Positions 264 through 60,204 of a stretch of DNA of 64,000 nucleotides are shown piece by piece (position 1 is the first letter of the stretch; each line of letters starts with the position of its first letter). A program made the position numbers and the translations under genes. This DNA is from Picochlorum sp. SENEW3 (taxonomy: Eukaryota): assembly GCA_034226945.1 (NCBI GenBank), contig CP120460.1:930001-994000 (forward strand), in the 5' to 3' direction. The notes under the pieces were generated by a model. That model worked only from the letters and a program-made list of their open reading frames with translations. It did no database searches and was not told the DNA's origin.

Positions 264-1414
264 TCACTGCTCTCTGGGCCTTTTCTGTCTCTCTGCAGTG
301 GCATCATCAGGGTCCCTCTTCGCTCCTTTTACCAAGGAACCATCTCTTTCAGGATCCATGGATGGATAAACATGAGAAGATTGGTCTCTGCTCTTTGGCA
401 GAGTCCCAACAGTGGTTTGATTTACACTGCTCGCCTTTGGACGACCCCACAGCAGGGTCAATTTGTCATCATTCACAACCAGGTTATTCCCGAGCTTCTC
501 TATTGCTTTTTCTGCATCTGATCTCTTTCTGAACGTCACAAAAGCGCAATTTTTGGCAGGAACCTTTTTAATGGTTTTTATTTCCCCGTACGAGTAAAAG
601 ACACTCTTTAGATCATCTTCTGAGACAGAATCACCTACATTGCCGACGAATAAAGTGGTAATGCTTCTATCATCTGGCGGCATGTTCTTCTTGTGAGGAA
701 CTTTTGATAGCATTTTCTGAGCGACAGGATCATTTACTCCATAGTATCTGTCCCTGATATTTTGCTCAGCCAAGGGGCCAGATTCAGGGAGTTCATGCCT
801 GTAGGGGCATTCTGCTCCTCGTTTGCACTCACCCTTAACAAAAAACGAACAAATCTTTGCTTTGTTTCTCTTATAATAAGGCTTATCCCGCTGCAACTTG
901 TTCAGAAGATCATTCGAGCCCGCCGTGGTAAATTTGCCTCTGTTCAATTCTCCTTCCTCCTCCAGTCTGTTCAAGGCAAATTCTTTTCCTGCCACACTAT
1001 CGGGCAAGTCCTCTTCTAATCCTAGAGCTTTGTCGCGTACTTGTACTGGCAAATTGTAATCCAAATCGAGGAGGCAAACTTGACAGACATTTTTCGCTTT
1101 GGCCACTTCCTGACAGATGATGGTTTTCTTATATCGGGCGTCATTACCTGGGCGCCAACGGAAAACGGTGTAAGGTCGGCCTGAAATATTACAAGTTCCT
1201 CCATATTCCATCTGCAGGAATAAACAAAGACGCATTATGCCAATAACAGGAGAACTGCCGTGGCGCTCAGAGTTCGAAGTCATGCCGGTTGTAAATAACG
1301 TACTCGTTGCATTCTGACATAGGGGTTGGGTCCTAAACATGTTTCACAGACTATAGGAAAATCACTGCGTTCCCATCCATCCCTTTCAGGATCCTGGAGA
1401 AGTCTGTGGGCCAT
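264..1414 (-). CDS. RBM22: Pre-mRNA splicing factor RBM22/Cwc2/ECM2 (Zn fingers + RRM)
   Basis: Exon 1 [37 protein letters not shown]; intron 1212-1303; then FRWRPG..RYKKT, CCCH finger [19 protein letters not shown] and RRM (TLFVGNV, NCAFVTF). Confidence 0.95.
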
Positions 1415-41449: not shown

Positions 41450-44400
41450 ATGGATGCAAAGGAAGATATCAGAACCCTCAAGGTTGCAGAGCTCCGAGAT
41501 AGATTACAAAAATTAGGATTGCCTAGCAAAGGGAAAAAGGAAATACTCGTAGCCAGACTGGCCGAAGCGTTGCAATCGGAGGTTGAAGTGGTATGTCCGA
41601 GTCTGAAAAGATGCATCGTTTATATTGATCATGACTTACGCAGAAAATTATCATGCAGAATGGTTTGAAAAAGAAGCGAGTAGCTGATGATATAACAGAG
41701 CCTGCAGTTGGAAAAGAGACACGGAAGAGGAGCAAGGTCAGTCCAGTCACAGGGAGCGAAAATGTAGGGAGGAAGGACGAGAAGCCATGGTCTCGCCTGC
41801 AAACCGTAGAAAACATATACAAAGAGATGCTGGGAGATGGCAAAGTCTATCCGTCTGTGAAGACTATTCAGAATTTGGAGTTCCATGGACTGCTTGAGGA
41901 CGTTCTACTCCCCTATTTTGATCAAGGGTTAGAAAAGTCATCTTTTCTGATGTCGATGATGCTAATGTTAAACGAGAAGTTTGATCAGGCCCTTCCCACT
42001 GCATGGGAGCCGGTGACAAGCCATGCAGAAGGAATGTTTGAGCAATTCTTCAAACAAGTTTTGTGCTTTCTGTACGAAGGGCGCTTCAGTATTGTTGAAG
42101 CAACATTTGCGATGAAATTTCTTTCCAATGCCATTCAATCTTTGGAGAATACAATTGTGCGGCCCTGCGTGATGAAAATATGCAGTTTGGCGATGTGGTC
42201 TCAACTCCCAGAAGAAAGGAGGCAACTTGAACTTCAGACCAGACCAGAATTGGCAAAAAAGTGGAGACATCTACTGAAAAAAGAAAGCAAAATAAAGAAA
42301 CAACATTCAGGAGCATCTGTCTTCGATTCAATAGAAGCCAAATTCCTGCCATGGCTTGTAGATGATGTGATTGAGTCATTCAAGAGGTCTGAAAGTGAGG
42401 CATGTACCCACTCTTTGAGCTACATGAAAGCAGCGTTAGTATTCTTAAAGGATATCATATCTCAACTGCCCACTAGAAGATTTTTTGCCACCTATTTAGT
42501 TCGCTGCAATTTTAGGGCCAAGTTGCAGTGTTGCAAAGCTATGCTCAGAACTAATGAGGCTGAATGCTTGCATGCATACATATCATCTCTGTTTGATTCC
42601 CTGGATGCTGCTGTAGACAATCTGACTGGAGAGGTAATATCGTATGAGCAAGCAATGAGGTCTTTCTATGGGTACACACAAAAGATTGAAAGATTGTTTT
42701 TCACCTTTTGGGAGGACTTGAAAGAGACCTCATTTTCTTCCGCCAAGGATCTCTGTTCTACAGATAAAATGAAGAAGTATCTGGCAAAGATGAGTGATGA
42801 TGATATTAAGAAGCTGGTTTGTGACCAATTGAAACTCGCCAGGACTCAAGACTACGAATTATTCGGCAGAAACTTGTTGGAGACCATATTCGAGGAGGAA
42901 CTGAAGTTGCCTTCCGCAGGGAGGCGGGCAGTGGAAAACTTACCCATCTACCCGGACGAGAAACTTATCATCGATCAATCGTTGATCCCTAACGTTAATG
43001 AAGCAACACACTCTGTATATCCATTGCCCAAAATTAACTTACAGTTTCTTTCTTTGCCAGATTATCTCGAGCGAAATTTCACACTGTATTTAACTGAAAC
43101 CGGCTATGATGTATGTCAGAATTTGATTGATGTTATCAAGAGGCTGTCACCTTATACCAACGATGCCGGAAAGCCCAGTTTTTCTGGATGGTCCAAAATG
43201 AGTCAAGAAGTAGAGGGATTCAGCATGGCTGAGGTTAGGCCATCTAATGTTGGCTGGGATTTCCCTGCCCTTGTTAGGGCAGAATTCTCCATCACAACAA
43301 GGGCAATGCCTGAGAGATTAAAGAGGGAATGGGACCAATTGAAGCAGCACGATATTCTGTTCTTAGTGAGCTTCAAGCATAATCTACCGAGTGTTGAAGA
43401 ATCAGTAGATGACATGAGATATCTCCAGTCTTGTGTGAGGGCAATTCGTGGATGTGAGATTCACGAAGTTAGAGATGAAGGTGAGTTTCGCGTCAGAATA
43501 GAACACAATTGACAACTGAAATCTAATATCGGAATATTTTGCAGAGGGCAACTTAATGAACTGCTTCACAGAAGAAGGAGAATGGGTTGGAGAAGGAAAG
43601 GGCTTCAAGCGGACTTTCACAGTTGAATTTGATCCTGTCCAGTATCACAACGATGCGATTAATGGAAATCTTGCGATTTATCCTTTTTTTGACATCGTGA
43701 TACGAAGAGATGTGAGAGAAAACAATTTCAAATCGGTTTTGAACAGCATTCGTGATGCTCTCGTAAGTGAAAGTATTGCAGGGGACACTTTGCCTCCCTG
43801 GTTGTCCGACACTTTACTGGGTTACGGTAACCCAGAGGACTCCACATTTCTATCAATGAGTGATCGATGCATTCACACAATCGATTATCAAGATACATTT
43901 TTGAGCAAAGAGCATGTCATCGAGTCATTTCCAGACCATTCCATCGAATTCAGAGGCGAACAACCTCCTTTCAAAGTGACATTCTGCACAGGAGAAAGCC
44001 TCAAGTTGGCATGTGGGATGAGGGAAAAAACAGAGCAGCACAAAATGATCGTGGAATCAACCTTTTCAAAGCGAAAGGAAAGCTATGCAATGGGAGGGGC
44101 AGGAAATGCTGTGCGTTTCACGCCCACCCAGGTCCAAGCAATATCGAGGGCATTGCAGCCCGGTTTGAGTTTGATAGTTGGCCCACCTGGGTCTGGGAAA
44201 ACCGATGTCGCCGTACAGATACTGCACGGGTTATATCACAATAACAGTAAAGAAAGAACCCTGATTATTACACATTCGAATCAGGCCCTGAATGATATTT
44301 TCCAGAAACTGTCACTAAAAGATATTAGCATTGGTGAAATGCTCCGGCTTGGATACGGAGAGAACTTATTGGAAACTGAGGAAGAGTTTGACAAGTCGGG

Positions 44401-45826
44401 GAGGGTGAATGCAATGCTGAGGAGACGAGTAGAGCTGTTGATGGATATCCATGCCTTGGCAGAGTCTCTTGAAGTCCAGAGCATCGGGGAATTCACATGC
44501 GAAACTAGTGCGAGTTTCTGGAAAATGCATCTGTTACCTAGATGGGAAAAATATCTTTCTCGCGTCAAATCATCTACAGACGCCGAGACTATAGTTTCTG
44601 AATTTCCCTTTCTGAAGTACACAACCCGGAAGAATGTCATGATCGATCATGAGGATTCCATGAACTCTGTTATGGCTGCATTCGGAGTCATTTCAAGTAT
44701 CTTTGACGAGTTGGAAGGTTTGAGACCCTTCGAGGTTTTAACTTCACAGAAGAATAGAATTAATTATATGTTGACAAAGCAGGCCAAGGTAATTGCCATG
44801 ACTTGTACACATGCAGCAATCAAAAGGCAAGAATTTCTGGACTTGGGATTTTCCTTTGACAATATTTTGATGGAAGAAGCTGCACAAATTCTTGACATTG
44901 AATCAATTCTTCCACTAACAATGCAGCAAAACCGAGAAGATAATTGTCGGCTAAAGCGGCTAATCTTGATTGGTGACCACTACCAGCTTCCTCCAGTGGT
45001 AAAAAACCCTTTGCTGAAGAATTACTGCAGGTTTGAGCAGTCTCTTTTTACAAGATTGATTCGACTGAACACTCCTTATATCCAACTCAATATGCAAGGT
45101 AGATGTCGACCCAGTTTGGCCAGTCTATTTAATTGGAGGTACAGAGAACTGGAAAATCTGCCTCAAACATCAATGGGGAAATTTGCCAATGCAAATCCAG
45201 GGTTTGCATTTGTTTGCCAGTTTGTGAACGTTGAGGATTTCCTTGGGAAGGGTGAAAGTCAACCAATGCCATATTTTTATCAAAATTTAGGGGAAGCTGA
45301 ATACATAGTTCTTCTATACCAGTACATGAGGCTGTTAGGTTACGAAGCAAAGAAGATATCCATTTTGACGACATATAACGGGCAGTGTCAACTACTGAGT
45401 GATATCCTCCATCAGAAATGCGCTGGACATCCATTATTTGGGATGCCGGGCAGTGTTTCTACTGTTGACAAATACCAGGGCCAGCAAAACGACTTTGTTC
45501 TTTTGTCGTTAGTCCGAACAAGGCATGTGGGCCATTTGAGGGATGTGAGGAGGCTGGTGGTTGCTCTCTCAAGAGCTCGATTAGGGCTTTATGTTTTTGG
45601 TAGACTAAACTTATTTCAACAATGCCAAGAACTCAAGCCAGTGTTCGACCAGCTACGAGAAAAACCCAGTCATCTAGCATTAGTTGAAGGGGAGCATAGT
45701 GAAATGGAAATGACTAGATCAGTCTACGAAGTGCCCCTCAAGAACCTCCACGTTCAAGATATATCACACATGGCGAGTATTGTTAAAAATATGGAAGCAG
45801 AGTGGAAGAGACAAAATGCAATGTAA
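41450..45826 (+). CDS. AQR: Intron-binding RNA helicase Aquarius with N-terminal SAP domain
   Basis: LPKINLQFLS, RENNFKSVL, VGPPGSGKTD, MEEAAQI and TVDKYQGQQ; introns after 41590 and at ~43481-43544. Confidence 0.95.
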
Positions 45827-51887: not shown

Positions 51888-52136
51888 TTTAAGTATTTTA
51901 TTTGAATATGTGCCATTCCACGTACGCATGGATAGACATGAATGCAACACCTGTCTCGAGATGTCCTGTTTTCTTTGTCGGAACTTTGATGACTCCTTGT
52001 CGCCCAACACCTTGTGATATCCCACGCAAAGTACTATTATCTATCCTGAGACTGTGTTTCAGTTCGGTTGACGAAGTTCAGACGATCGAATACGTTTAAC
52101 GAAGCAAAACTATCTCTCGCGATGCCATTTCATAGG

Positions 52137-52143
52137 TATATAG
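52137..52143 (+). promoter_or_regulatory. TATA-like box upstream of the permuted tRNA
   Basis: TATATAG about 40 nt before the 3' half. Confidence 0.55.
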
Positions 52144-52180
52144 CAGAGAGAAAATTCTGCTCCTAGCACACACAATGGTT

Positions 52181-52273
52181 CACAGGAGGTCCCCAGTTCA
52201 ATTCTGGGTTCGAACAGAAGTGCATTGCACTCGTCAGTTCGAATGGTCTAGTGGTTATGATTCCTGTCTAACA
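52181..52273 (+). tRNA. trnV-AAC: Circularly permuted tRNA-Val(AAC): 3' half 52181-52216, spacer 52217-52236, 5' half 52237-52273
   Basis: The rejoined halves fold into a full cloverleaf: acceptor GTTCGAA/TTCGAAC+A, D loop AGTGGTTA, anticodon arm CCTGT-CTAACAC-ACAGG, T arm CCCAG-TTCAATT-CTGGG. Confidence 0.92.
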
Positions 52274-52285
52274 TATCGATATCAA

Positions 52286-52298
52286 TTTTGCAATTTTT
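52286..52298 (+). terminator. Pol III oligo-T terminator after the tRNA 5' half
   Basis: TTTTGCAATTTTT 13 nt after the 5' half. Confidence 0.6.
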
Positions 52299-52394
52299 AC
52301 TTTCAGAGTTTTAGATCCTAATGGCATGGATCACCCTTTGGTTGTACTGACAAGCTTCAATATGACTGATGTACAACCTAAACGCCCTGCAGGG

Positions 52395-52844
52395 CTACAG
52401 CTGTAGGGAAGAATTCTCGACATGAACACGTTCGATGCTTCTCACATGCATACTGCAAATGATCAATCGTCCCCTCCAAGATCCTTCCTTGTTCTGCAAA
52501 AGGAAAAGGTCACAATAAGAAGTATGTGTGTTTCTGTGATTATTTCCCTGTAATTTGTCTGGGCAAACGATATATTCTATATCACCCATGTGCTCTTTTA
52601 CTGCTCTTGTTACTCTCTGATTGACAATCGCCGGTTCCATTGCCACCCTAGTGGTGATTGTATAACGGAAAAAAGGCAGTCGTCTGATGTTCCTAGGAAG
52701 ACTAAATTCTTCGATTGTCTCATCAAAACCCCCTCGGACCTCAGCCCCCTCGCATATCGTCAATAACTTCTGAAGAAGTTCGATTTGGCGGCCATCCTCG
52801 GATTTTCTTTCGCAAGTTTCTTGGAAACTGTCGTCGCTGGCCAT
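52395..52844 (-). CDS. Hypothetical protein
   Basis: ORF of about 150 codons starting MASDDSFQETC; no recognised motif. Confidence 0.35.
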   Translation of the reverse strand: MASDDSFQETCERKSEDGRQIELLQKLLTICEGAEVRGGFDETIEEFSLPRNIRRLPFFRYTITTRVAMEPAIVNQRVTRAVKEHMGDIEYIVCPDKLQGNNHRNTHTSYCDLFLLQNKEGSWRGRLIICSMHVRSIERVHVENSSLQL

Positions 52845-53953
52845 GGTTCGTTCGTTTTGAGAGAAAAAGAAAGCAAGAAAAAACCCGAAAAGCACTCTAT
52901 GCTATCACCGTTGCCTCTGCATATCGGAAATAGTAACATGTCTATAAATCGTTGTGAATCGGATAGAACAAGCCGCGGCAAAGTGTTTGTGACAGAATTG
53001 TTGATTCGAGATGATCGAGTACTAGATGTCGCTCGCAACCGCGCGGTTGAAACCGTTTGTAGTGATAAAAACGGGTTCAGACACATAAATACATCAATAT
53101 TTCATATCTATGTGATACTTATCACATATGACAGTACGTACAAGAGTTTCGGTTCGAAGTTGACTTTGCGTTCGACTACTCTGCTCTACTCTCAGCACTT
53201 GAGAAGAAAAGACAGTCGGTACCTAAACAGAGAATAATTACTACTGTTGTTTGGTATATAATATGAATTGGAGGGTCATTACATGCTGCAGTGCCTCATG
53301 ATGGCGGAGTTTTGCGGATTGATTCTCGAATAGTCTGCCCTTCAAATTTTGAAAGCGCGGGTAAATTCAAAATCCTAGGATTCAATTGACATGCCCTGTC
53401 AAAGGCTCTTTTTGAAGGGATCGTGGGAAACCCTTCCCCGAGATGGTAAATGTATCCCATCAAAAGGAACGTTTGACCGGACATAGAAGATATGTTAGGA
53501 GATGTGAGACTCTCTTGGTCAAAATCGACTTGTGGTGTGATTACAGATGAATGTAGATGTGTAGAAGAAGACAATGATGTAGAAAAGGTAAAAAAACCTG
53601 GCTGTGAGGCAGACGTCATACCACTAGACCACTCGAGCAGACCTCAGTGAGGACAGATGTATACATATGCTCAAGCGCAGAATTGAACTGCGGACCTTCT
53701 GCGTATTCACTATGTTCATTCCATCAATTTACTGTTGAATATGAAGTCATTGAGTTGTATTTCTGACTCAAAAAATATTTTATATACGATGATATCAAGT
53801 GAAATGGCCCAGGCTACCTGACAACAGATGAACAGATGAGTGAGAAAACTCTGACTGAGACGGAATAGGGGCTGCCTGGTGCTCATTTTAGTGTCGACAA
53901 TAGAAATTCTTACATGCTTACATGCTTTCTTCTTCTTACAGAGAAGGCTGCAA

Positions 53954-55698
53954 TTATTTCTTGGGAATTTTTGTGACTTTCCCAATAGCAATAGTGCGAC
54001 CTTCATCGCGCAAGGTGAATCTTCCAAGCTGGGGGTTTGATTGGAAAGATTCCACACAGATGGGCTTCTCAACAGCAATGCGGGCGATGCATATGGATCC
54101 ACTCTTGACAAATTTCGTTTTCTTCTTCTCCTTGGTTTTCGGATCGATGGCTGCGACGATCTTCGTTACTTCGCACTCTTCCACTATAGAGTGTAAATGC
54201 AAAATTGCCGTGTATCCTCCTGTCAGGATGGGTTTGTGTTCCAAGAGGTCCAATACTACAATCTGTGCTTCAAACTGGTGTACGACTGGAACGAGCTTGT
54301 TACAGTCTGAAAGCACAAAGCCAGAGGAAACTTCATCCTCTTCTATGCCAGCCAGACGAAGCCTCAAATTCTCCCCAGGTCGAGCTGCGTTGACCTCGTT
54401 CTCATCTCTCCACACAGTTGTGACTTTCACCTTGACCTTGTTGGGCATCATCATTAGCTTGTCTCCTTTAGCAACAACACCTGATTCGCATTTTCCCATC
54501 ACTACTGTGCCCATGTCCTTGTATTTGTCCATAACTGGCATGCGGAACGGAGCAAAAGGATCCCTACTGATTGCTTCGACATCATCAAGAATGTCAAAAA
54601 ATGGCTTTCCGTTGTACCAAGGGCAGACATCCTTGCTAACAAGTTCCTTCATATTGTGCCCCATAAGTCCTGAGATGGGAATATAAATCAAGTCCTTTTT
54701 TGGATTGTACCCGCACCCTCTAAGAAAGGGAGATAATTTTCCAACAATCTCATCATAACGCTGTTGTGACCAAGCATCTTTATCCTCAACGATAGAAGGA
54801 TCGTCCATTTTATTGATAGCAACAATGAGTTTTGAGACCCCTAGTGTCTTGGCCAACTGTGCATGTTCTCTGGTTTGGCCACCTCGCTCAAAGCCTGTCT
54901 CAAACTCTCCCTTTCTCGCAGAAATCACGAGCACTCCGATATCAGCTTGCGAAGCGCCTGATATCATATTTGGTACAAAAGACTTGTGCCCCGGTGCATC
55001 CAAAATGGTATACCTTTTTCTTGTTGTTTCAAAATGAGCTCGCCCAACTTCAACAGTCTTACCCTGCCAATAGAGCAATACAACCTGTCAATTGGGAGAA
55101 GCACAACCATTGGATTCGTCATCAACGTACCTTGGCCCTTTCCTCTTCGTTGGTGTCCATGATGTATGCCATGTACCAACTCTCTCTATTCTTTTCTTTC
55201 GCTTCTCTTTCGTACTTCTCTATTGTTCTGTCATCCACACCGCCTGTCAGAAATAGAATTTGTCCGGCAGTGGTACTCTTTCCTGCATCAACGTGGCCTA
55301 TAAAAACCACATTCATATGCTCTCTGCACGAATATCGCATTTCCGTCATGAACATGGGGTCCTTGTACAGGGGAAATACAAACTCTGACACACCTGCCAT
55401 CCTCCTCGTCGAGTTCTGTCAGCACTCGCTCAATCTTTTCCTTTCTATGTGCCTCATCTTCAAGTACGTCATCATCATCCTTCAGAGAAGCGCTGGCCAT
55501 TTTGTCTTCTACGGCCACTGCCGATGGAACCTCTTTGCTTTCTTTCTCCCCTGGGTCCTGATCCGTTTTTTCAGTTTCGCTTGTTTTACCTGATGGCACA
55601 AATGTAGCAACTGTTGGATTAAAAGAGAATGATGCCGCTGAAGGATTCAAATTCGTCGTTTTCGAACCCTCCGCGTGTTCTTCCCAAGAGTCTGACAT
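53954..55698 (-). CDS. eRF3: Eukaryotic peptide chain release factor 3
   Basis: PAM2 LNPSAASFSF; GHVDAGKST; GKTVEVGRAHFET; DAPGHK; NKMD; QLGRFTLRDEGRTIAIGKV. Confidence 0.96.
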
Positions 55699-55984: not shown

Positions 55985-57791
55985 ATGCACCTGGCCACAT
56001 TGCATCATCGCGCTCTGTGCGGACAGAGTGTGCTCGTTGGAGACCGTGCACAAGGGCAGGAAAGGCGCAGCCGTTTAATTGCAGCGTCTGCGACAACGCC
56101 AAAGCGAAATGATCAAGTAACCCTTCTTGATTACGGTACGTCATCAATGCGCGTTCATTTTGACAAAACCTGGGACTTACGCTCGAGGGTTGCATGTGTG
56201 AGCAGGTGCTGGTAACATACGTAGCATCAAGAATGCGATCAGGAAACTTGGATACTCCATCAAAGAAGTTGAACACCCAAAAGATATTAGCAGCGCGGAG
56301 AAGCTGATATTTCCCGGCGTCGGAGCGTTTGGGCAAGCCATGGAGATTTTGAAAAAGAGGGATTTTCTTAATCCTCTGAAGGATTATATTTTGGCAGACA
56401 AGCCATTTTTCGGCATTTGCATAGGAATGCAGGTGCTTTTTGAGGGATCAGAAGAGGATGGAGGCAGCGAAGGTTTGGGAATAATACCAGGTGTAGTGGG
56501 CCGTTTTGATTCAGCAAACGGTTTACAAGTGCCCCATATCGGCTGGAATACCATGCATCAAAGGCGCCCTTCGGATTTACTATCTTCAGTTGGAGATAAG
56601 AGGGTTTACTTTGTGCATTCCTATCGAGCCACCCCAAACGAAAAGAATGATCCATGTGTGCTAGCAACTTGTGATTATGGCTGTGAATTCATCGCAGCAG
56701 TCAACAAGAATAATTTATATGCTACTCAATTTCACCCAGAGAAGTCTGGAGCTTTGGGGCTTAAGATAATTGATTCGTACCTAGGTGGTGGAGGGTCGTC
56801 AGAGGCTCAAGACGAGGACGCATCACTGGGACCTCCAGGTCTGGCAAAGAGGGTCATTGCTTGCTTGGATGTTCGTGCAAATGACCAGGGAGACCTAGTT
56901 GTCACTAAAGGAGACCAATATGATGTTCGGGAGAGTGCAGGCCCTTCTTCAGGAAACGTGAGAAACTTGGGGAAGCCGGTAGAACTTGCCCAGCGGTACT
57001 TTGAAGAGGGCGCTGATGAGGTGACGTTCCTAAACATCACAGGTTTCAGAGATTTTCCTCTAGGAGACTTACCGATGCTTGAGGTTCTGAAACAGACATC
57101 TGAGAACGTATTCGTTCCTCTCACTGTTGGAGGCGGGATCAGGGGTTTTACCGATGCGAATGGGAAAAAATATACTGCTCTGGAAGTGGCAGCAGAGTAT
57201 TTCAGGAGTGGTGCAGACAAAGTGTCAATCGGAGGAGATGCAGTGATCGCGGCAGAGGAGTATATTAGGAATGACGGTCGGATGGATGGACAAAGTTGCA
57301 TTGAGCAGATCTCAAAGGTCTATGGAGCACAAGCTGTGGTGATCTCTATTGATCCCAGGCGTGTATATGTCAGCGAGCTAGACGAGACTCAACATCATAC
57401 GATACGAACGAATAAGATAGGCCCAAAGGGAGAAGAGTACTGCTGGTGGCAATGTACTATAAAAGGAGGGAGAGAGGGCAGAGATATTGATGTCGTGCAA
57501 TTGGCCATGATATCTGAAAAATTGGGGGCAGGAGAAATTTTGCTGAATTGTATTGACAATGATGGGGTAGGACAGGGTTTCGATATTGAATTGGTAGACC
57601 TAGTTTCGAAATCTGTTTCAATTCCTGTCATTGCAAGCAGTGGGGCTGGGAACCCTGCCCACTTTACTGATGTATTCCAAAACACTGCAGCTTCAGCTGG
57701 TCTGGCAGCCGGCATTTTTCACAGACAGGAGGTTTCTATTGATCAGGTGAAGCAAAACATGTTAGTCAACAAGATACCAACTCGATTATGA
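55985..57791 (+). CDS. HIS7: Bifunctional imidazole glycerol phosphate synthase (HisH-HisF), plastid transit peptide
   Basis: LLDYG|AGNIRS, PGVGAFG, GICIGMQ, TQFHPEKSG and LAKRVIACLDVR. Confidence 0.96.
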
Positions 57792-60204
57792 ATTACATGT
57801 ATTATTTTTTTTTGGAAAAGCTACCTCGACAACTTTCACAACCTTCTGCCCCTTTGATACATACATTAATCGAATCTTCATGACAACCTTGTCACTCCCA
57901 TGGGTAACTATCCACATTTTTTGAGTAACAGGACTGCTGTGCGGCGCAATCTTCCCAGCTGAGGCTGCCTCTAAACGGAGTTTCATGTGTTTGGGAACAG
58001 CTGCCTGTACTCGAAACTCCTCCATAGTCGCATCGGTCTGATTGTAATATTTTGCTGAGAAGTGTATAGTGCTGTTGTCATCACAATTGGAATCAAAGAA
58101 TTGCACATCTATTTTTATGGTCTCATCTCTATACGCTTCAAAGGTAGATGTGCTATCTTGAGTTGCCTCATCAATACCGAGGAGTTTGGTCAAATCCACT
58201 GAAGATTCTTGGTCCTGCAGATCTACAGATGATGCTGGATCTGCTACTTCGTCCATACCTTCCAGTGCGGGTATGGGGCCGAAAACAGTATCATATATAG
58301 TCTTGTGAGGGTACAAACAAGTGATCTCCATGCTTCTGTTCTGACTCTCAATGGAGATGCTCTTATTCATTTTACTGACAATGGAATACATCTTCTCCCT
58401 GTCATCACTAGATTTGGTTCTGGCACAAACCTTTCCCAGTGCTACCAATGCATATGAGTGGCAAGACTGGGGAAGATTAGAATCAATGGTGACTTTTTCC
58501 GCCAACTCAATAAAAACCGGAACCTTGTCAGCCTGGATGTACTCACCGCAGAGCCACAGAGAAACTTGGGTGAGAGCTGCATTGCTGTCTTCTTTGCAAT
58601 CTTGCCAAGCCGTGATATACTTATCAGCGGTATACTGATGAAGATCTTTAGCATTCAAAATTGTTACGATCAATGAGCGACAGGCGTCCTCGCTAACATA
58701 TTCTCCACACTCCACTAGAATATTCAACATGGAGTCGATGTACCAGGAAGGATCCATGGACAGTTTCTGGATCAGAATACAGGTTTTATCGGCAAGTTCC
58801 TCTCTAAAAGATTTATCACATATCTTCAGATATTCTATCAACTCTTGCACTATTTCTTTTGCATTTCCTGGATTGACAAGAGCAAACACAAGATCCAACG
58901 CTTTCCTCCTGATTGAATCGTCATCATCTCGCACACATTCTAAAACCACACTCTTGTGCCGCTGCATCGCCTGTGGATCCTCGGATATTGTATTGAGAAG
59001 CAATGATAGAGATATATAACGCATATTATTGTCTCTATATCCGAGAAATCGCCCCAATGTATTCACTGCAAGAACTCGAAGGCCTCCAATACCTTTGACT
59101 GCCATTATCGTTTTCACGCATTCGTACAAAACAGCATTACCAGCTGGCTTGTTATTATCTACATTGGTAGCTACCTGAGCTAAAATATCACTGATAGAAT
59201 CCCCGAGACTCTCATCATTTTCACTGAGCAAACGGAGCAAATGCAGAATTTTCACTTGGAGATACGGGTCTGACACTCCATTTACATCATACTCTGCAGC
59301 AAAGCCTCCTGACACGAGAACTTTTAGTATGCGACACAAAAGTGGAGCAGATTGTGCTATTACAGCCCTAAACAATTTCTCCGCTGTAGCGATATCAATC
59401 ATCAATGTTACCCCTGTCAGGACAACTGCATGGTTCCTCTCATGGAGCTGCTCCATCGCCCGATCAACAAAAGCTTCCATCATATCGGGCATTTTATGAA
59501 CTATTCTCCTAGCACACAAGGCGGCTTTTTTCCGTATATATGGATTTGGACTTGCCAGCAATCGATCGACTTCCGGCGAGAGGTCCCTAGCCATCTCTGA
59601 GGAGCATATATTGCCAAGTGCTGTCAAGGCAAGACCGATGACATACTGATCCTGACTGTTCAAATCATTTTTCAAAGAATTAGTGACAAGCATCAAAACC
59701 TCTTGGCGCTCATCAAGTAAAAGCATCAACCCAAGATACCCCACCCTCTGCACATGGAAGAAGAGCACCAGCTCAGACAGTGACACATGGACCAAACAAT
59801 ACGCATATGTCACACCTTATCAGCAAATCCATTTGAAGCAACTAGTTTCAATGTTTCCATCTGCCCAAAGTGCGTTGGATAACCAAGCATGTGCATAAAC
59901 ATGAGTTTTGCAACATTCCTGCAGTGATACAACCGTAACCAATTGTCACCCTGTTATAGCCGACCACGCTGGTACTTATGACATTACCTGTGTCTATATC
60001 TACTATTTTGTTCTTTGAATGCTTTTCTGAGTGCCGCTGCCTCCTTAGCGATGATATTCCGCTCGTCCTGGGCAGTTTTACTTTGGCGAACGCTCCGAAT
60101 GAGATCCCTGAGGATACAAAGTCAGCATTTTAGAATGATAGTTTTTTGAAATACGATCAAAAGAAGCGAGTCTCGTGGAACACGCACCGCAGTTTGCAAG
60201 ACAT
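57786..60204 (-). CDS. AP1G: AP-1 complex gamma adaptin
   Basis: [34 protein letters not shown] and [19 protein letters not shown]-terminal ear QAAVPK. Confidence 0.95.

Follow-up and report, generated by a model that had tools for sequence, protein, structure and literature searches.

Gene Organization

Two tRNA-Val genes with their halves in reversed order lie in the window, that is, the whole 64-kb stretch of DNA that was analysed. They are convergent, about 1.4 kb apart, and both appear to be circularly permuted. Gene 1, a tRNA-Val(AAC) gene on the plus strand, had already been reported in a preliminary description of this DNA, the coordinates and sequence strings of which are correct base by base. 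Its elements are the following.

52137–52142 (+): TATA-like element, TATATA, 44 nt 5' of the 3' half
52143–52180 (+): leader, without a T4 run
52181–52216 (+): 3' half, tRNA positions 38–73 (C38 to A73), 36 nt
52217–52236 (+): intervening sequence between A73 and G1, 20 nt, with an internal palindrome and without T4
52237–52273 (+): 5' half, tRNA positions 1–37 (G1 to A37), 37 nt
52274–52298 (+): trailer, with T4 at 52286–52289 and T5 at 52294–52298, the presumed RNA polymerase III terminators

In the 3' half, the 3' side of the anticodon stem is followed by a variable loop of 5 nt, then by the T-arm and the 3' side of the acceptor stem, and the half stops at A73; CCA is not encoded. The 5' half contains the 5' acceptor strand, the D-arm, the 5' strand of the anticodon stem and the loop C32-U33-A34-A35-C36-A37 with the anticodon AAC. 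In its native order the gene is not called by ARAGORN. After rotation of the halves by a script, 5' half before 3' half, the program reports a tRNA-Val(AAC) of 73 nt with 7 acceptor pairs, 5 anticodon-stem pairs and 5 T-stem pairs. The swapping of the halves with a break at 37/38, as originally proposed, is thus borne out by a clean cloverleaf. The hairpin ascribed to the 20-nt spacer is present as a palindrome and forms in the MFE fold, and the TATA box and oligo-T stretches mentioned together with it correspond to the TATATA at 52137–52142 and to the T4 and T5 runs.

The second gene, overlooked in that description, emerged from a generic permutation-aware scan of the window. It is a permuted tRNA-Val(CAC) gene on the minus strand (53703–53603), built up as follows.

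53779–53786 (-): TATA-like element, TATATAAA, 83 nt 5' of the 3' half and directly followed by a T6 run
53668–53703 (-): 3' half, tRNA positions 38–73, ending in A73, without an encoded CCA
53639–53667 (-): intervening sequence, 29 nt, with two short palindromes and without T4
53603–53638 (-): 5' half, tRNA positions 1–37, 36 nt, anticodon CAC
53590–53602 (-): trailer, with a T7 run (53596–53590) that starts 7 nt past A37

Rotated in the same manner, gene 2 is read by ARAGORN as a tRNA-Val(CAC) of 72 nt, the D-loop of which is that of gene 1 minus one base. The break is at 37/38, and an A on both sides of it makes 36/37 possible too.

Detection by Standard Tools and Chance Controls

At default thresholds, and with introns of up to 3 kb included, ARAGORN detects no linear tRNA in the 64-kb window, and no tRNA is found there by Rfam at the gathering thresholds. 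A sensitive Rfam search of positions 51900–54000, with E values up to 10, yields four weak matches (E 1.2–4.8), none of which is a tRNA. When the ARAGORN threshold is lowered and introns are allowed, 17 calls appear scattered in the window, two of them borrowing parts of genes 1 and 2; these 17 calls are regarded as noise. The silence of both programs at default settings agrees with the earlier remark that standard scanners miss permuted genes, and according to the literature tRNAscan-SE likewise misses them. Because permuted genes escape standard gene finders, genomes that carry such genes are annotated with apparently incomplete tRNA sets.

The generic scan demanded a T-arm with 5 of 5 pairs and a TTC.A loop, and acceptor strands pairing at 7 of 7 positions around a spacer of 0–120 nt; it was not derived from gene 1. 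Its chance level was assessed on 100 neighbour-preserving shuffles of the window, a candidate being counted as complete when a 5/5 anticodon stem and U33 were formed across the 37/38 junction. Under strict settings the real window gives two candidates, genes 1 and 2, both complete, while the shuffles give 0.08 candidates on average (largest number, 2) and not a single complete one. Under relaxed settings there are 10 real candidates, among which again only genes 1 and 2 are complete, against shuffle means of 8.04 candidates and 0.11 complete ones. The permuted layout at both loci is more than chance. A simpler pattern count (2 versus 0 in 100 shuffles) was set aside as a control; it is circular, because the pattern had been written from genes 1 and 2 themselves.

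Comparison of the Two Genes

Genes 1 and 2 are paralogues, with 58 of the 73 aligned positions identical. Both rotated genes carry U8, G18G19, U33, a purine at 37, T54-T55-C56, A58 and A73, as well as the pairs G15:C48 and G53:C61, and in each gene all 20 standard pairs are intact. When the paired stem positions are compared (n=21), 14 are the same, two differ on one side and five differ on both sides. The single-side changes, G-C to G-U at 5:68 and G-U to G-C at 10:25, keep the pairing, and the double changes (2:71, 7:66, 27:43, 31:39 and 50:64) are compensatory. Four of these five (2:71, 7:66, 27:43 and 31:39) link bases across the two halves. It would be difficult to account for such cross-half pairs if the halves of a gene did not act jointly within a single folded RNA, and the compensatory changes across the break point to selection acting on the complete fold. 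No sequence relationship is seen between the leaders, spacers or trailers of the two genes. The tRNA genes form the sole substantial inverted repeat in their area; an interpretation as arms of a mobile element was considered and rejected, there being no inverted repeat beyond the tRNA bodies and no relationship between the flanks.

The usual scenario for the origin of permuted genes is a tandem duplication after which the outer halves are lost, and such an intermediate must, by this scenario, once have existed. It could therefore be imagined that both loci are dead relics, tandem pairs of linear tRNA-Val genes that lost their outer halves and are no longer processed, while other, ordinary genes decode valine. 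The genome may indeed contain linear Val genes of the usual kind at other sites, and the permuted copies could be redundant or silent. However, the cuts on either side of both loci fall precisely at 37/38 and leave no residue of an outer half; for two relics of independent origin, it would be a coincidence to end at one and the same nucleotide. In a direct comparison, each half was aligned to the 60-nt flank in which its tandem partner would sit and the score was set against those of 1000 shuffled flanks. No trace of an outer half was found in any of the four flanks: the scores are 5–7 of a possible 36–37, and shuffled flanks do equally well or better in 681, 251, 309 and 958 cases of 1000. 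Nor does the window hold further convincing copies of any half, the leftover matches being 12–15 nt long (E 0.08–0.33). The possibility of remnants of tandem linear copies, raised in the preliminary description as something to be checked, finds no echo in these shuffle-level alignments or in the absence of a linear tRNA call at default settings. The intact stem pairs of both genes with their five compensatory changes, and the T-run 7–13 nt past position 37 and TATA-like box upstream of each gene, likewise argue against dead relics, which we consider unlikely.

An inversion of the order of the halves by an error of assembly or sequencing, a concern also voiced earlier, is hardly credible. The same layout is found in two different genes, and the junctions fall exactly on functional tRNA boundaries. 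Moreover, both loci are reproduced without any difference in Logan contigs of X15, a DNA-like run: positions 51900–52570 lie inside a contig of 17,493 nt (17.5 kb) and positions 53566–53900 inside one of 8,244 nt (8.2 kb). This best-matching run may be the sample behind the window assembly, so that its agreement is not independent and lends weak support. No joint is seen at either tRNA gene in the contigs of X15 or in those of runs X1, X3 and X7, the latter three not extending over the two genes; none of the 19 runs listed is recorded as RNA, and this result has no bearing on expression.

Environmental Permuted Genes

Metagenome contigs were scanned with a pattern consisting of a Val/Pro-type variable loop and T-arm with a D-arm 25–55 nt further on. 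Of the 81 loci that match, 10 look permuted, in that they combine an acceptor stem of 6–7 of 7 pairs, an anticodon stem of 5 of 5 pairs across the break and an ARAGORN call upon rotation with no credible linear call; long-intron ARAGORN calls overlapping the loci L009, L080 and L081 were discounted. Nine of the ten are tRNA-Pro genes, and locus L035 is doubtful. Another two (L018 and L022) were placed in neither class, and the remaining 69 are not permuted, being mostly ordinary tRNAs in tight tandems or arrays. A permuted tRNA-Val gene is not among the 81 loci; diverged orthologues would be missed, because the T-arm, the variable loop and the D-arm are in part fixed by the pattern. Viral contigs yield six loci with the same pattern, none of them permuted. 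Linear tRNA calls are present in many of the metagenome loci and in all six viral ones.

Six distinct environmental permuted tRNA-Pro genes served to build a covariance model (CM) with the permuted cloverleaf as its structure, the genes of the window being excluded, and the whole window was searched with filters off. Gene 2 (53603–53703, -) is matched with 56.5 bits and gene 1 (52181–52273, +) with 55.9 bits, each over the full model length and with an E value of about 1e-14. Among the 16 matches listed for the window, the next one has 9.1 bits and an E value of 2.2. The model is not specific for permutation, as tight tandems of paralogous linear tRNAs score too (for example, locus L029 with 73.7 bits). 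Its matches therefore demonstrate an architecture of half, spacer and half, and it is the absence of outer halves that makes the loci permuted.

Expression Signals and Folding

Past A37, gene 1 has a T4 run at +13 and a T5 run at +21, and gene 2 has its T7 run at +7. In the environmental permuted genes, a run of at least four T residues starts 7–14 nt past position 37 in 9 of 10 cases and a TATA-like hexamer occurs between -85 and -56 in 6 of 10; the boxes of permuted tRNA-Pro genes that are comparable to that of gene 1 are located at -58/-59 and -85. A and B boxes are present in genes 1 and 2 in inverted order, a feature of the permuted class that is discussed in section 5 of Soma 2014.

The TATA-like box of gene 2 is distant (-83) and the T6 run comes immediately after it, which counts against a functional reading of the gene. 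The T6 run would be avoided if transcription started about 25–30 nt downstream of the box.

The signals have a bearing on a scheme in which each half has a transcript of its own and the two are joined in trans without a circle, as happens in Nanoarchaeum. The mature product of such a split tRNA would be identical to that of a permuted gene. The halves are, however, adjacent and on the same strand, and neither spacer (20 and 29 nt) contains a T4 terminator run or a TATA-like hexamer. Being so short and free of signals, the spacers leave no room for a second promoter. To our knowledge, trans-spliced split tRNAs occur only in archaea, and their occurrence at these loci seems highly improbable.

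For gene 1, a pairing of C32, U33 and A34 in the anticodon loop with positions -3, -4 and -5 of the leader had been put forward, giving a relaxed BHB-like motif. The helix itself is possible and comprises 3 bp (C32:G-3, U33:G-4 and A34:U-5), one of them a G:U pair. The motif is weakly supported; gene 2 pairs in a different register, with a helix of 4 bp from 33:-4 to 36:-7 (U33 to C36) and no 32:-3 pair. Helices of 3–4 bp are too short to be significant individually, and the MFE fold of gene 1 proposes another 3-bp leader helix.

In the MFE fold of gene 1 in native order, the two ends form the anticodon stem, the T-arm is present and the spacer closes the acceptor stem (z score -2.16); equally good folds are obtained for 4 of 200 shuffles. 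A shorter construct of gene 2 forms the anticodon and acceptor stems (z -0.07), and the MFE structure of a longer precursor is not a cloverleaf (z +1.00). Thermodynamic folding supports gene 1 modestly and gene 2 not, and it is a weak discriminator here.

Genomic Context and Lineage

The window is gene-dense nuclear DNA with 43–47% GC, and the genome of the trebouxiophyte Auxenochlorella is much more GC-rich. Families of the plant lineage are represented by HPAT, raffinose synthase, mTERF and ShK. The AP-1 gamma protein encoded in the window has near-identical relatives and others at 91% and 65% identity, while its matches in Chlorella, Micractinium, Trebouxia and other genera have 44–53% identity. 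In a quick IQ-TREE analysis of this single gene, the protein belongs to a clade of eight rows with full support, the long branch of which lies apart from the named streptophytes and core chlorophytes. One member of this clade (P0008, 52% identity) belongs to the same 90% cluster as a protein of Picochlorum soloecismus. The tentative assignment to Trebouxiophyceae made from the sequence at the outset is therefore roughly right, in that the nearest named relative in the AP-1 gamma tree is Picochlorum, a trebouxiophyte; the relationship is a distant one (52% identity), and the class assignment has this one link as its basis.

Relation to Known Permuted tRNA Genes

The layout of genes 1 and 2 is rare and already described, and the two genes extend the known class of permuted tRNA genes. 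Table 1 of Soma 2014 comprises 34 permuted genes, none of which is a tRNA-Val gene. The green-algal and nucleomorph genes in this table are of type II, with one exception, and their identities are Ser, Leu, Cys, Arg, Asn and iMet. The intervening sequences have a known range of 1–74 bp according to the same source, with 5–64 bp for the green-algal and nucleomorph genes. The list for O. tauri (supplementary table S4) contains six permuted genes; valine is represented in it by four genes, each of the ordinary type. Furthermore, Bathycoccus is credited with seven permuted tRNA genes and a prasinovirus with one, while for chlorarachniophyte nucleomorphs permuted tRNA-Ser alone is on record. The preliminary description knew of no documented permuted genes in the presumed lineage of the alga. 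The novelty implied by this was overstated, as they have been reported for the trebouxiophyte Auxenochlorella UTEX 250-A (Plant Cell 2025, PMC12636532). There, they came to light through an incomplete tRNAscan-SE set, and the gene illustrated is a tRNA-Pro(UGG) (legend of Fig. S1, PMC12636532). The accessible portions of a 2026 EMBO J review and of PlantRNA 2.0 name no further lineage with permuted tRNAs. Neither a permuted tRNA-Val nor a Picochlorum-like case appears in the openly accessible text searched, in which the Bathycoccus and prasinovirus genes figure by number.

In many aspects, genes 1 and 2 are reminiscent of the type II genes of the Mamiellophyceae Ostreococcus and Micromonas (Soma 2014; Genome Biol Evol 2013, PMC3673656). 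Both groups of genes are nuclear, belong to green algae whose genomes are compact and have the 3' half in first place, the 37/38 junction, a short spacer (here 20 and 29 nt), an AT-rich or TATA-like sequence upstream and a T-stretch downstream, and no CCA. They differ in lineage and in identity, the identities tabulated for green-algal and nucleomorph genes being without Val. With Auxenochlorella the half-swapped layout is shared and probably also the algal class (PMC12636532), whereas the gene illustrated there is Pro(UGG), with no mention of Val in the accessible text. The genes of Cyanidioschyzon merolae, for which maturation via a circular intermediate has been demonstrated, resemble genes 1 and 2 in having a TATA-like box upstream, a T-stretch downstream and a spacer, there of 7–74 nt (Soma 2014). 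This organism is a red alga, however, and uses four junction positions, often with extra non-canonical introns (Soma 2014); in genes 1 and 2, both junctions are the canonical 37/38 and introns are absent. Finally, ordinary tRNA genes with a 37/38 intron would have in common with genes 1 and 2 the cuts after 37 and before 38 and possibly a loop paired with the sequence upstream of 38, and presumably the same endonuclease and ligase are used here. In contrast to these ordinary genes, the "intron" is open here, the leader forming one part of it and the trailer the other. Ligation would thus close a circle, and it would fall to RNase P and tRNase Z to open its acceptor end.

Proposed Maturation and Decoding

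Taking the evidence together, it is probable that both loci, the plus-strand one for tRNA-Val(AAC) and the minus-strand one for tRNA-Val(CAC), are functional, circularly permuted nuclear genes of type II (37/38). Their features agree with those given for the permuted class in sections 4, 5 and 8 of Soma 2014. For gene 1, the original reading of a genuine and probably functional permuted tRNA-Val(AAC) gene is supported by the cloverleaf, the covarying paralogue, the expression signals, the lack of outer halves and the CM match.

A maturation pathway can be proposed by analogy with Cyanidioschyzon and Mamiellales; what is observed is the gene anatomy alone. RNA polymerase III would start downstream of the TATA-like box, read through the 3' half, the spacer and the 5' half, and stop at the T-run past position 37. 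The transcript would then fold as a tRNA in which the spacer closes the acceptor stem and the ends of the transcript form the anticodon stem, and its anticodon loop may pair with the last leader bases. Cleavage by the tRNA-splicing endonuclease would take place between the leader and C38 and between A37 and the trailer, which are the canonical intron cut sites, and A37 would be joined to C38 by an RNA ligase, so that the RNA becomes circular. The spacer would subsequently be removed by RNase P and tRNase Z, which would open the acceptor end for the addition of CCA.

A34 of eukaryotic tRNA-Val(AAC) is deaminated to inosine, and this would be expected for the AAC species here. The IAC and CAC tRNAs together could read GUU, GUC, GUA and GUG. 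All four valine codons are in use: in 13 Pfam-supported ORFs of the window, 505 of 7,503 codons specify valine (GUU 158, GUC 102, GUA 88 and GUG 157).

Permuted tRNA mimics of the YrlA type are tRNA-like in their body, have a closed acceptor end and lack an anticodon loop. By comparison with these, the transcripts of genes 1 and 2 could be thought of as non-decoding tRNA-like RNAs with a closed acceptor and an open anticodon loop, serving as a mimic, as a source of tRNA halves or as a polymerase III/TFIIIC landmark. Such a role is compatible with the fact that the re-joining at 37/38 is, for these loci, something we infer. Yet in both genes a complete loop of 7 nt, including U33, a Val anticodon and A37/C38, is regained exactly on rotation, and the anticodons of the two genes would complete the valine box. 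Furthermore, the DNA is part of the nuclear genome of a green alga, a group for which section 5 of Soma 2014 reports expressed permuted tRNAs. A non-decoding role is thus very unlikely, and decoding by permuted tRNAs is the reading followed here.

Implications

Genes 1 and 2 add a second lineage with permuted tRNAs near the trebouxiophytes. The identity involved is valine, with both isoacceptors side by side, and this identity is absent from those published lists that were accessible for examination. The paralogue pair provides internal covariation evidence that selection maintains the layout.

It is possible to speculate further that the valine box of the alga is served solely by permuted genes, and that permuted tRNAs are old and widespread in the Chlorellales/Picochlorum branch, a proposal that we put forward tentatively and consider rather doubtful. 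If it is true, a valine box with permuted genes only, together with the permuted tRNA-Pro of Auxenochlorella and those from the environment, would make permuted genes an old trait of this branch. The AAC and CAC genes would then have stayed permuted for long enough to diverge at about one fifth of their positions, in a compensatory manner, and permuted tRNA genes would be no mere quirk of prasinophytes and one red alga. Maturation via a circular intermediate would, moreover, be essential for the viability of the alga. If the genome is without linear Val genes, the alga relies on circularisation by the splicing endonuclease for a whole codon box, and it would then be a clean system for asking why permuted genes persist.

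tRNA genes and their surroundings in the window

The nuclear DNA of the window is gene-dense, and across its whole 64 kb neither ARAGORN nor Rfam calls an ordinary tRNA gene, yet it holds the permuted tRNA-Val(AAC) and tRNA-Val(CAC) genes.

The stretch of about 1.1 kb that separates the two genes (52500-53600) behaves in public contigs as multi-copy and variant-rich sequence. In the contigs of X15, a DNA-like sequencing run, where the baseline depth is 62, it peaks at about 690, while in those of a second run, X3, depth is very high at 52503-52905 and 53106-53239 and zero in the flanks. In the contigs of both X3 and a third run, X7, positions 52905-53142 are replaced by 13 other nucleotides. 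A search for a second copy within the 64-kb window found none, and a sensitive Rfam search of 51900-54000 gave no convincing match for this stretch. Two open reading frames that overlap its left part (52395-52901 and 52767-53237) match no Pfam family. This stretch might represent a repeat family located next to polymerase III genes.

Other features of the window are protein-coding:

41635-43512 (+), open frame, Aquarius-like intron-binding protein, N-terminal domains
43520-45826 (+), open frame, Aquarius-like intron-binding protein, helicase domains
57786-59816 (-), AP-1 gamma protein gene

The two neighbouring Aquarius-like frames are separated by only 7 nt, and their split could reflect a frameshift, an error in sequencing or an intron of small size. 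The AP-1 gamma protein was placed in a quick single-gene tree, where it and its seven nearest relatives lie on a long branch of unusual amino-acid composition outside the named core chlorophytes; one of the seven falls into a common cluster with a Picochlorum soloecismus protein. The lineage of this clade seems to be fast-evolving and represented by few named proteins.

Permuted tRNA-Pro genes in environmental DNA

Nine metagenome loci, comprising six distinct sequences (L009, L080, L041, L077, L045, L058, L059, L070 and L081), are by sequence type II permuted tRNA-Pro genes, that is, broken at 37/38. Their anticodons are TGG, AGG or CGG, their spacers measure 8-16 nt, and a T-run begins 7-14 nt past position 37. 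The permuted tRNA illustrated in the Auxenochlorella report (PMC12636532) is likewise a tRNA-Pro, whereas the Pro genes of O. tauri are ordinary.

Two further metagenome loci, L018 and L022, score 50-55 bits with a covariance model built from the six environmental sequences. Both have 7/7 acceptor pairing around spacers of 8-9 nt and yield no linear tRNA call; the anticodon stem across 37/38 has just 3-4 of 5 pairs. They may be permuted genes that have their junction elsewhere or bear an intron.

In L041 and L077, the permuted gene, a tRNA-Pro(AGG), has an ordinary paralogue immediately upstream on the same strand:

locus positions 475-576 (-), ordinary intron-containing tRNA-Pro(CGG), called by ARAGORN in both loci

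Such adjacent linear and permuted paralogues could inform the origin of permutation.
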